Below, piece after piece: positions 56,983 through 61,640 of a stretch of DNA of 64,000 bases. The DNA lies in the NCBI GenBank assembly GCA_965216785.1, contig OZ244197.1, positions 128,001-192,000 of the forward strand, in the 5' to 3' direction. The stretch is from Thermodesulfobacteriota bacterium (GTDB lineage Bacteria > Desulfobacterota_D > UBA1144 > Nemesobacterales > UBA2774). Within the stretch, counting starts at the first letter, position 1. The number at the start of each line of letters is the position of its first letter. The position numbers and the translations under genes are program-made. Below the pieces are notes generated by a model. That model saw only the letters and a list, made by a program, of their open reading frames with translations. It was not told where the DNA came from and did no database searches.

Positions 56983-57420
56983 TTATCTGCCGGCATAACG
57001 GCATACGGCATAGGACACCTTTGCCCCGAGTGAATCATCGTTTGTGTACTTATCCTCTTCTCTTCCTTCCGTAGCGTTTATGAGCTTGGACGAGGGGCTG
57101 TAGAATTCCTCTCTTAGCCTGAAAAGCTTTCGGTCAAAGCAATCGACTTCCCAATAACCAAGCTGTCTGATATAGCCAGGGTCGTTTTCATCATCGGCTT
57201 TCCTCTGAACGTACTTTATGAAGAATTTCCTGGTATTATCGTTCACTTCTATACTGTCTAAATCAAGGTATACGGAGACTACCGCTCCTTGTTCGGGATA
57301 CATATCACCAAGGTATTTCCACCTTGTGTCGGTGTCCTGAGCGCTATCTCCGCTGCAGGAAATAAGACATACAGAAATTGATAAAAACACCGCAGCTAAA
57401 AATATACTTAACTTTATCAT
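56983..57420 (-). CDS. Lipoprotein, surface-adhesin-E-like fold
   Basis: Lipobox LISC; W..LG, YLD.DSI, VDC and C-terminal VC pattern. Confidence 0.6.
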   Translation of the reverse strand: MIKLSIFLAAVFLSISVCLISCSGDSAQDTDTRWKYLGDMYPEQGAVVSVYLDLDSIEVNDNTRKFFIKYVQRKADDENDPGYIRQLGYWEVDCFDRKLFRLREEFYSPSSKLINATEGREEDKYTNDDSLGAKVSYAVCRYAGR

Positions 57421-57440
57421 AGTAATTTTCCTTATGAGGA

Positions 57441-57878
57441 TTAGTTTTTATACGCACAAACGAATTCAAGAACCTCACTTCCTATAGTATCGGGACCCGC
57501 GGGCTTAAGAGTATTTTCTTGCTTGTAATTTTTAATTACAGAGCCGTCCCTGGCGTAAAATATCGCTTGTAAATTTTTACCTGTTTTCTCGGCGCAATTC
57601 CCCTGTCTTTCAATACTTACCCGCATATAAGCGGCGCCCGATGGCAGCGGCTGATCTTTATAGAAAACATGTCCCTGCCAAAACCTGACTATATCGCCGA
57701 TGTGAACTATGGTGCGGGTATCGACATAAACGTCGAACCGGCTTTGATCCTGAAGCGTACCGTAGCCCACCTGCTCCCATTCAGCCGCTTGAACAGAATA
57801 AGCCTGAATTAAGAGCACAGAGGCAAGAAGCAAGCTGACTGTATATAAAAATGTGGCTTTTTTCATACCGGTAATCAT
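57441..57878 (-). CDS. Secreted protein, surface-adhesin-E-like fold
   Basis: Signal peptide AAEW; YVD.RTI, VRFW, NC and PDTIG..VLEFVC pattern. Confidence 0.65.
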   Translation of the reverse strand: MITGMKKATFLYTVSLLLASVLLIQAYSVQAAEWEQVGYGTLQDQSRFDVYVDTRTIVHIGDIVRFWQGHVFYKDQPLPSGAAYMRVSIERQGNCAEKTGKNLQAIFYARDGSVIKNYKQENTLKPAGPDTIGSEVLEFVCAYKN

Positions 57879-59323: not shown

Positions 59324-59526
59324 TCTTTAATCCGTGTTTAAAGTTTGGAAAGTTTAGTACCTTATCATATTTAATTATCAATAGTAAAGCCGTCCTGAAC
59401 CATATGTCTTCGGAAACCTTTCCGATATATAGCTCATCATATGGGGTATACTATATTGCAAAAATAAAGTGCTTATGTACAATTAACAATTACCGGAAAG
59501 TAACTGGACGGAGGCTAAGCTGAATA

Positions 59527-60489
59527 ATGAGCGTAGATAATCCTTTCGTAGTTCTAAAAGAAGAAATGGACAAACTGGTGGTCGGCCATGAGGAGGTAAA
59601 AAACGCACTCCTGCTTGGTATCATTGCCAGAGAGCACATTTACGTAGAAGGTCCTCCGGGAACCGCAAAAACAATGTTGGCCGAAATAGTATCGGGTGCG
59701 GCGCAGCTGAGGTTCTTCTTTTATCAGCTCCACAGAGACACCAGGCTTTCAGAGCTGATCGGTGACCTGGTTATATCTAAAGAAACTACAGATACCGGAG
59801 AGGTAATAAAGCAGAAGGTGGTAAAGGGCGGTATACTGACATCTGAAATCTGCCTCCTGGATGACATTTCAAGAGCACCCGGCGAGTCACTGAACGTGCT
59901 TCTCAGAATACTTAACGAAAGAAAATTCTTTGATGAGAACATTCCTCTTTTAACAGCCATCGCAACAAGTAACCCGACGGCTGACGAGTACTATAACGAG
60001 CCTCTTGACCCTGCGAACCTGGACAGGTTTGTACTGCAGATTAACGCCCAGGGACTTTCCTATGGGAAGAAATGGGAAGAAGCTAAAGAGGTTATAAAGC
60101 TATACACTGAGAACCCCGGGGATTATGAAGTGCCGCCGAGGGTATCAAGAGAAGTGTTTGATGAGTATTACGCAAAACTCGGGAGTGTAGATATTCCTAC
60201 CGAAGTGCAGGAGGGACTTGCTAATTTTGTCGCTACTCTGATTGAGAACTACGGGTGCAACGAGACTAACTCTCTTATTTCGGACAGAACTTTCTTTGTA
60301 AAATCGCTTAAGATTATGAGGGCGCACGCGCTTCTCAACAACCGCGAGCAGTGCACAATTGAAGATCTGAACGCGCTTAAATACATGACTGCTTTTCGTA
60401 TACCTGAGGAAATCTTCATGCAGCTCGATCAGATTCTGGACGAGCTTACAGCTAAAAAAAAAAAGACCAGGACAGCGGGAGCGAACTAG
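59527..60489 (+). CDS. MoxR/RavA-like AAA+ ATPase
   Basis: Walker A GPPGTAKT, Walker B variant CLLDD, LNVLLRILNER, TSN sensor and DRF arginine finger. Confidence 0.9.
   Translation: MSVDNPFVVLKEEMDKLVVGHEEVKNALLLGIIAREHIYVEGPPGTAKTMLAEIVSGAAQLRFFFYQLHRDTRLSELIGDLVISKETTDTGEVIKQKVVKGGILTSEICLLDDISRAPGESLNVLLRILNERKFFDENIPLLTAIATSNPTADEYYNEPLDPANLDRFVLQINAQGLSYGKKWEEAKEVIKLYTENPGDYEVPPRVSREVFDEYYAKLGSVDIPTEVQEGLANFVATLIENYGCNETNSLISDRTFFVKSLKIMRAHALLNNREQCTIEDLNALKYMTAFRIPEEIFMQLDQILDELTAKKKKTRTAGAN
60454..60465 (+). other. Candidate -1 programmed frameshift or transcriptional slippage site (A11G)
   Basis: 11 A plus G; in-frame A_AAA_AAG at 60459-60465; -1 frame has TAA at 60453-60455 and is then open to 61640. 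Confidence 0.6.
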
Positions 60490-60659
60490 AGCCTGAGCCT
60501 TCCTCCGAGTTCGAACAAGACTTCAACGAAGAGGAAGAGAAAAGTGAAATCCCGGACGATCAGGCCGAGAAGGAATCACAGGACCAGCTGTCTGAGGCCC
60601 GCAAGACCTTTTTCCAAGCCTTAAAAGAACTCAAGGAAAACATCCAGAACGAAAACGAG

Positions 60660-61640
60660 ATGGCTCCGCCCGAGGACCAGAACGCACCAACTGACCCAAG
60701 CGGCATGGCAGCGGACGAGGGTGAGAGGAACGATGAGAAGGACGATCCCAAAACAACCAAGGTATTCGCGAGCAAATCCCCTGACCCTGGGGACGAAGAG
60801 GACTACTGGATAGGCGGGAAAAGAAACACCGAATCCGCCGATAATATTAAATCTATAATGAGAGTGCTCGAAGGAAACTTCCAGCGCAACATAGCGCTTA
60901 AGGCCCCTCATCCGGGCGGTCTTCCCAGGACCTGGAAGAGGATGAGTTACTTTGACGAGATGGAAGACGTAGACCCGTTCGAGGCCTCGTTCTGGACAGA
61001 GCACACTACCCCAAACCTACCCCGCGTACATAAGAGGGAAAAGGAAATGATGGGCGGTGAGATCGCGATATTAAGGGACGTAAGCACTTCTATGATGGGA
61101 GTTTACAGCGAATGGTCTTCCTCGGTCGTAAGAGGCGTAATAGAGCTTGCGCGCACGAAGAGAATGAGGGTTGGATACGTAGAGTTCAATCACCGCTCCT
61201 ATAAATATAAAAGAAACTCCAAATTCTTTACGAGAGACTACCCCTGGATGCTCGAGCTTGCAGCTAAAACCGAGTGCTCGGGGAACACCAATTACGAAGA
61301 CGCGCTTAAGGACGCGCTCGGCGAGTTCAGAGGCCGGGGGCTGAGAAATAAGCACGTGCTGTTCATAACGGACGGCATACCCACTTCAGGTGACTGCGAC
61401 GTAGTCGCCGAGAGGCTGAGAGCCAAGAAACTGGGCGTGTGCATACATTCGATTTTTATAGGCTCAAAGAACTACCCTCGCATACTGCAGAAGATCTCGG
61501 GTGAGACGAGCGGCACTCAGTTTATCGCTACCAGGAGAAAGAACGGAGCCATAAAGATTGAAAGAAGAGATAAGAGGCTCGGACCTCCGGCAACAAGCGA
61601 TAAGACTCAGGTAGACCCGTTCGGTAAAGTATTCGCCTAA
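60660..61640 (+). CDS. von Willebrand factor A domain protein (ViaA-like); frame is open from 60456
   Basis: MIDAS DVSTS, GNT and FITDG motifs; no clear RBS at ATG 60660; frame extends 68 codons upstream to the A-run. Confidence 0.88.
   Translation: MAPPEDQNAPTDPSGMAADEGERNDEKDDPKTTKVFASKSPDPGDEEDYWIGGKRNTESADNIKSIMRVLEGNFQRNIALKAPHPGGLPRTWKRMSYFDEMEDVDPFEASFWTEHTTPNLPRVHKREKEMMGGEIAILRDVSTSMMGVYSEWSSSVVRGVIELARTKRMRVGYVEFNHRSYKYKRNSKFFTRDYPWMLELAAKTECSGNTNYEDALKDALGEFRGRGLRNKHVLFITDGIPTSGDCDVVAERLRAKKLGVCIHSIFIGSKNYPRILQKISGETSGTQFIATRRKNGAIKIERRDKRLGPPATSDKTQVDPFGKVFA

Follow-up and report, generated by a model that had tools for sequence, protein, structure and literature searches.

In frameshifting chelatase genes (fs-chlD), a single gene encodes an AAA+ ATPase, an acidic linker and a von Willebrand factor A (vWA) domain. 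An A-rich site at the joint between ATPase and linker, mostly calling for a -1 shift, allows a short and a medium subunit to be made from it (PMC3711429, PMC9227772). These sources also describe a two-gene form that lacks the signal and some members with neither a large subunit nor a known function. Escherichia coli dnaX likewise supplies two AAA+ ring subunits from one gene (PMC3711429). In Thermus thermophilus dnaX and in tssM of Citrobacter rodentium and Yersinia pseudotuberculosis, a run of 9–11 A's gives two length variants, in both polarities, whose ratio matters for the machine (PMC5009743, PMC4256274). C. rodentium tssM has an A11 run with 20–25% polymerase slippage, and its Y. pseudotuberculosis relative has the opposite polarity (PMC4256274). 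Here we describe a locus in a 64,000-nucleotide stretch of contig OZ244197.1 (positions 128,001–192,000, assembly GCA_965216785.1; the whole stretch is hereafter called the window) in which a MoxR/RavA-like AAA+ ATPase is followed, across an A11 run and in the -1 frame, by a linker and a vWA module. An earlier note on this DNA had proposed one gene with two products, a 320-aa AAA+ protein and an AAA-linker-vWA fusion of about 704 aa. Comparative sequence evidence supports that proposal well, and it is very probably correct.

All parts of the locus lie on the forward (+) strand. The Shine-Dalgarno (SD) sequence GGAGG (59510–59514) precedes the ATPase start, with an anti-SD duplex of -9.5 kcal/mol at ATG 59527. 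The frame-0 open reading frame (ORF; 59527–60489) encodes the short product, a 320-aa ATPase with Walker A GPPGTAKT (residues 42–49) and Walker B LLDD (residues 110–113; 59854–59865). Pfam matches bpMoxR, AAA_5 and AAA_lid_8 fall on this first part, and a VWA match falls on the -1 frame. The 3′ end of the ATPase ORF reads GCT AAA AAA AAA AAG ACC ... TAG, which contains the candidate slippery site A11G (60454–60465; A11 at 60454–60464, G at 60465) and an in-frame A_AAA_AAG (60459–60465). The TAG (60487–60489) closes the short product 7 codons past the run.

The -1 frame has a TAA at 60453–60455. This stop is the 5′ bound of any shift, which is thus confined to the inside of the A11 run. Past the run the -1 frame stays open for 391 codons, with its stop ending at 61640. 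It first encodes an acidic, mostly disordered linker (60465–60824; 32% D+E), in which the first ATG, GTG or TTG is codon 65 (ATG 60660). The linker leads into a vWA module (60825–61640) with an N-terminal helix/hairpin extension and a metal ion-dependent adhesion site (MIDAS), assembled from DxSxS (DVSTS at 61077), the T in GNTNY and the D in TDG at 61371. In the predicted long product of 704 aa, this module would be the C-terminal portion. Re-reading the sequence agreed with the earlier note on the heptamer, the ORF end, the open -1 frame and the 65 start-free codons running into a MIDAS vWA domain. A genome search found the gene in single copy, with no separate short or long paralogue.

Among the A or T runs of the 3.12-Mb genome, 19 of which reach at least 9, the A11 run is the longest, so its presence at the joint is not due to chance. 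AAA AAA AAA is avoided genome-wide, with 5 cases seen versus about 40 expected (229 KKK sites in 1678 long ORFs).

We searched 120 Candidatus (Ca.) Dadabacteria genomes and identified an ATPase match at E ≤ 1e-60 in 117 of them, with one copy each. The gene is kept even in genomes of 0.8–1.1 Mb. The joint is readable in 115 of the 117; G016 and G116, whose contigs end before the joint, and the partial G031 stand outside the 115. Every readable junction carries a run of A9–A12 at the same joint (15 A9, 68 A10, 31 A11 and 1 A12), across AAA+ identities down to about 56–60% and locus GC contents of 0.28–0.56. Relative to the ATPase, the vWA frame needs -1 in 94 of these junctions, is in frame in 18 and needs +1 in 3. 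(G084, with many frameshifts, is one of the 18 but entered neither the tree nor the stop test; the linker and structure tests excluded G001, which has an N after its A11.) The A-rich site is thus conserved in all of these homologous loci and the -1 frame break in 94 of them, two points that the earlier note had named for checking, and natural in-frame fusions of about 700 aa exist in the 18 phylum genomes and in dozens of database proteins. The run is retained in the in-frame genes too, where it has no frame to repair.

The frame-0 stop lies 2–8 codons past the run in 94/94 minus-one loci. Within 60 codons after the run, none of the 94 has a stop in the vWA frame, and each of the other two frames is stopped in all 94. 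Substitutions at linker codons 10–62 in 27 same-family loci fall on codon positions 3/1/2 in counts of 8840/3441/1986. These comparisons show coding selection on the linker in the frame of the vWA module.

Runs at this joint also occur beyond the phylum. We kept 80 of 248 metagenome loci (L168 is itself a cut locus), and A9–A12 is present in all 62 of the single-gene type, 30 of which fall outside the Dadabacteria-like group. In one of them (L141) the ATPase part has 0 AAA codons and 16 AAG codons, yet the joint reads AAA AAA AAA. A search for longer relatives returned 286 proteins; of the 120 that were listed, the joint could be scored in 119, and in 113 it holds at least three lysines. Their source names include Tectomicrobia and Entotheonellaceae. 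Members of the family or its clusters from eukaryotic transcriptome and proteome sets (MMETSP and EukProt; P0122, P0123, P0130 and others, one named Norrisiella sphaerica) are mostly fusions of 700–900 aa without a lysine run, and there are also paralogues of about 600 aa with a diverged ATPase part.

Among Tectomicrobia-like loci, we identified 21 full-length in-frame members, which are close kin. Rare codons (usage 2–6%) flank and lengthen the run in these loci, with CGA or AGA before it in 19 and GTA, ATA or CTA after it in 20. The +1 frame stops immediately in 21/21, and the -1 frame stops 2–5 codons on; 0.6% of gene positions are as tight. Several Tectomicrobia-like contigs (L149, L162, L165, L166 and L167) begin 46–64 nt before the match start. 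L167 has an A12 run in the +1 state, one A above its in-frame relatives, and would represent a slipped transcript if the contig is RNA-derived.

A sister lineage (17 of the 80 loci) has a different arrangement. In 15 of these loci, a long or vWA-bearing gene is immediately followed by a second, short gene of about 322 aa that encodes the ATPase alone, and the full-length long gene is visible in 8 of the 15; the other 2 of the 17 show the short gene only. The separate short gene stops at the end point of the truncated product, and the vWA protein still carries an ATPase domain. The longest A-run per locus is 3–7. Because this lineage has a gene pair and no run, the family appears to have two ways of encoding the short and long forms, a single slippery gene or a gene pair. 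The order of descent between the two arrangements was addressed by a one-clade test, with an approximately unbiased p value (p-AU) of 0.187. One long-group protein of the lineage is named Deltaproteobacteria bacterium. Three of the two-gene loci (L178, L201 and L218) have a Peptidase_M14 gene and an unannotated gene divergently upstream on the - strand.

How the run would be used is a separate question, for which we consider RNA polymerase slippage the likelier main route. As at programmed transcriptional realignment sites, which have at least 9 A or T, the run is 9 or longer in 115/115 phylum junctions and 62/62 metagenome loci, and 9 is the in vivo threshold given for bacterial polymerase slippage (Atkins 2016, PMC5009743). 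Ribosome sliding in vitro is weak on A9–A10 and robust on A11 (Koutmou 2015, PMC4363877), and 83 of the 115 runs are A9–A10. T. thermophilus dnaX has stops in both off-frames (PMC5009743), as do the Tectomicrobia-like loci. The preference for polymerase slippage thus draws on the 9-A floor, the stops in both off-frames of one lineage, the lack of conserved stimulators and the weak sliding on A9–A10. Polymerase slippage on long A runs was an option in the earlier note, and a run of at least 9 in any phase fits it at least as well as it fits ribosomal shifting. The comparison with dnaX and tssM has its limits: the proteins are unrelated, slippage was established experimentally there and is read from sequence here, and the site described here is phylum-wide and beyond.

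A rather unlikely alternative, although the strongest of those considered, is that the same two products arise mainly on the ribosome, through -1 frameshifting on A_AAA_AAG or A_AAA_AAA or through sliding on the run. Exactly -1 is needed in 94 of the 97 broken loci, A11 slides robustly in vitro, and fs-chlD is described as ribosomal (PMC9227772). The earlier note had emphasized the E. coli dnaX type of site. That part stands for the window, where A_AAA_AAG is in frame. The emphasis is less well supported across the family, where the heptamer is present in 45/94 minus-one loci (45/115 of all junctions) and absent in 49/94 (70/115). The run itself is therefore the conserved element, since the heptamer occurs in only 45/115 junctions and stem 1 of the proposed pseudoknot is not conserved. 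Also unlike E. coli dnaX, the locus would make its long product by the shift, and no conserved SD-like or hairpin stimulator accompanies the run. No run is shorter than 9 although the heptamer needs only 7, and the immediate +1-frame stop of the Tectomicrobia-like loci is a further point against a ribosomal -1 shift.

Stimulators were sought in several ways. The search for a conserved SD-like stimulator found none (median percentile 0.16–0.67 within each gene, with the window at 0.49), and no conserved structure was found at a spacer of 5–9 nt. The earlier note had tentatively proposed a pseudoknot from complementary stretches at 60477–60513. These stretches exist and stem 2 is 89% paired among 22 distinct same-family (f1) rows of an oriented alignment, which favors the ribosomal route, but stem 1 is only 49% paired, so that pairing supports the proposal by half, and the predicted fold of the region is no more stable than that of shuffled sequences (z +1.23). 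For covariation as a whole, 35 of 500 shuffles reached the observed score, and 13 of the 30 family loci scanned showed no pseudoknot-like pattern. The putative pseudoknot is thus not supported as a conserved stimulator.

Several observations count against polymerase slippage as the main route or against the two-product reading as a whole. All 94 minus-one loci contain A_AAA_AAA in frame, which makes a ribosomal -1 shift possible at each of them. In chelatase cassettes, shifting was 63/40/10% on 11/9/7 A's, with efficiency rising with length (Antonov 2013, PMC3711429), and a -2 ribosomal shift could account for the +1-frame stops as well. The stem 2 pairing belongs here, as does a stable hairpin that family f8 (one sponge-type genus, e.g. 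L120) carries about 20 nt after the run (at about 20–55 nt; z below -2 in 23/36), further from the run than usual stimulators. For the 17 in-frame Dadabacteria loci, the tightness of the off-frame stops is at chance level (24.5% of positions). In 32/88 minus-one loci, the best start found in the first 100 codons scores -5 or better for SD likeness, so some lineages may have an additional internal start. The fused relative P0056 and most of the distant representatives, seen as proteins, have no lysine run at the joint. Finally, the neighborhood search found no conserved client gene nearby and none shared across lineages. With these points weighed, the one-gene, two-product reading with polymerase slippage is, with moderate confidence, the best explanation overall.

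Phase variation at the DNA level, in which replication slippage would toggle the vWA part in sub-populations, is very unlikely. Five single genomes are one A off their nearest kin (G023, G043 and G111 in the +1 state, G029 with A12 and G044 with A10), and some metagenome contigs of the same lineages carry A9, A10 or A12 variants, as such toggling would produce; the five singletons may instead be natural variants or errors in homopolymer assembly. Within clades the phase holds steady, with 8 changes on a tree of 114 rows versus 19.1 in shuffles (0/200 shuffles as low). Moreover, toggling would mean that 94 of 115 genomes have switched ‘off’ a vWA domain on which purifying selection is strong.

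Two separate genes of the ravA/viaA kind, with the vWA protein made from ATG 60660 or another internal start, are slightly less probable still. A methionine at about codon 62–73 past the run is common across families, and the SD-like scores noted above are in line with such a start. Against this, ATG 60660 has an anti-SD duplex of only -0.1 kcal/mol (computed, as for ATG 59527, with the 16S tail of the genome itself), which bears out the earlier remark that it has no clear SD. The 65 codons upstream of it are stop-free and under coding selection, in-frame fusions exist in 18 genomes and dozens of database proteins, and 6/94 loci have no start codon at all within 100 codons after the run. Two genes would also leave the run unexplained. 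An assembly error in a plain fused gene, or a recent pseudogene, is effectively refuted: homopolymers are error-prone and A12 would fuse both frames by computation, but the -1 state occurs in 28/31 genomes of the window's own family and contigs from 4 sequencing runs of 3 studies bridge the A11 with 0 gaps, a contig-level rather than raw-read confirmation of A11 over A12 (X1, X2 and X5 may be the source of the window DNA, and X7 is from another study).

Several observations place the protein in a MoxR/RavA-like AAA+/vWA family that is, by sequence, separate from ChlD. Among solved structures, sequence profiles place CHU_0153 and RavA nearest, and the two are also first by fold, in agreement with the RavA/MoxR-class assignment of the earlier note. 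The window ATPase matches RavA at E 2e-16 and true ChlD proteins of the same order at E 0.05–0.22. For the chelatase family TIGR02442 (cut-off 779), an in-frame relative scores 28 bits, whereas a true ChlD from that order scores 444. On these sequence scores we rejected membership in ChlI/ChlD (TIGR02442, TIGR02030 and TIGR02031) and with it a chelatase identity. In a quick tree, the branch to ChlD is 7.4 changes per site. Compared with fs-chlD, the window's family has a RavA-type lid (AAA_lid_8) and a Walker B with DD rather than DE, which is invariant in family alignments, including both subunits of the two-gene lineage. The ESM Atlas feature neighbors are ChlD-like clusters (0.95); we read this likeness as shared architecture, and it counts against a clean separation from ChlD.

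In 6 of 61 genomes CobN scored above the cut-off; the window's genome (G000, 92% complete) has none. Fs-chlD without a large subunit has been described (PMC9227772), so the absence of CobN is weak evidence by itself. We searched four of the six CobN genomes, and each holds a separate chlD with its own A8–A10 run. These are the f6 family genomes G043, G051, G037 and G058 (L227:2195, L228:2194, L229:2197 and L230:2207). The run of their true chlD lies at the AAA/linker joint; the gene itself is split in two of the genomes, is in frame in the other two and looks like the known fs-chlD type. Since the true chlD has its own run, these genomes of 1.2–1.5 Mb hold two unrelated slippery AAA+/vWA genes.

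The protein has the features of the broad MoxR clade, with a MoxR-type ATPase in sequence and fold plus a MIDAS vWA domain. Like RavA/ViaA, NorQ/NorD, CbbQ/CbbO and CobS/CobT, it combines a MoxR-clade ATPase fold and a RavA-like AK[ST] Walker A with a MIDAS vWA partner. RavA has about 500 aa and a LARA domain. Membership in RavA/ViaA itself was rejected: the only NCBIfam match is a weak one to RavA (60 bits versus a cut-off of 681), the protein has 320 aa and no LARA domain, and there is no ATPase-free vWA partner gene. Unlike the partners in these pairs, its vWA domain is tethered behind a second ATPase copy, and there is no conserved client gene. The model of an in-frame relative contains the ATPase, a disordered linker with one helix (low predicted local distance difference test score, pLDDT) and the vWA module. 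The window vWA module is predicted to fold as a vWA domain (Z 19.7, root-mean-square deviation 2.3, 167 aligned) with an N-terminal hairpin extension. A fold search with this module returned generic vWA folds; NorD, CbbO and CobT are not among the rows listed, which excludes nothing.

If polymerase slippage is the main route, RNA polymerase would insert or skip A's at the run that joins the AAA+ part to the linker-vWA part. The long product would come from transcripts with 12 or 15 A's, and short products of 320–323 aa from those with 10, 11, 13 or 14 A's. A slip in the in-frame lineages would yield the short product instead. In the window genome, which has both A11 and A_AAA_AAG, both routes may act, with a ribosomal -1 shift on the heptamer and sliding on A11 probably contributing. 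Short and long chains would join in one MoxR-type ring in which ATPase subunits outnumber vWA domains, by analogy with NorQD and CobST, in which one vWA finger occupies the ring pore (PMC13036017; 10.64898/2026.10.09.757910). The slip rate would then set the vWA:ATPase ratio of the ring. With a fully fused gene, each ring would carry six vWA domains, a number that slippage would lower. The tethered MIDAS domain would grip a client for the ring to remodel or to load with a cofactor.

The genomic surroundings of the locus consist of housekeeping genes that differ between lineages (mltG, proB, a glutathione S-transferase gene, a thioesterase gene, gyrA and guaAB-like genes). In the window, the stop of the vWA frame overlaps that of a convergent mltG (YceG) by 4 nt (61637–61640), and mltG and proB are the commonest downstream neighbors in the phylum. 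The adjacent beta-propeller/effector gene that MoxR-vWA-beta-propeller (bpMoxR) ternary systems have in a conserved operon was not found among the locus neighbors. A plasmid search returned only distant MoxR matches, none covering 80% of the query, and a promoter and terminator scan was at chance level. Elsewhere in the window, two tandem 145-aa genes with Adhesin_E matches adjoin an alanine symporter gene (56983–57878, - strand).

A literature search found no description of slippage or frameshifting in the MoxR-like AAA+/vWA family of Dadabacteria, with Antonov 2020 and most subscription papers outside its reach. The main text of Antonov 2013 (PMC3711429) does not mention MoxR, and one supplementary file of that paper lay outside the search. 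We therefore present the locus as a candidate for deeply conserved recoding, which would work like fs-chlD and slippery dnaX/tssM in a separate, undescribed family. We tentatively suggest, as a possibility short of probable, that an undescribed ancient MoxR-like AAA+/vWA motor, retained even by streamlined 0.8-Mb Dadabacteria, sets its number of vWA domains per ring by polymerase slippage, independently of the chelatases, with the phase flipped several times without loss of the run and one lineage using two genes.

Cellular (non-mobile) bacterial genes seldom show conserved recoding. The site described here persists throughout Ca. Dadabacteria, where the gene is single-copy and nearly universal, and in at least three lineages besides. 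This suggests that AAA+/vWA machines twice evolved a one-gene route to a ring with few vWA domains. If true, the series of long-default, short-default and two-gene lineages would be a natural test of the vWA-to-ring ratio in MoxR machines, and annotations of the genomes that carry the gene would miss one of its subunits.

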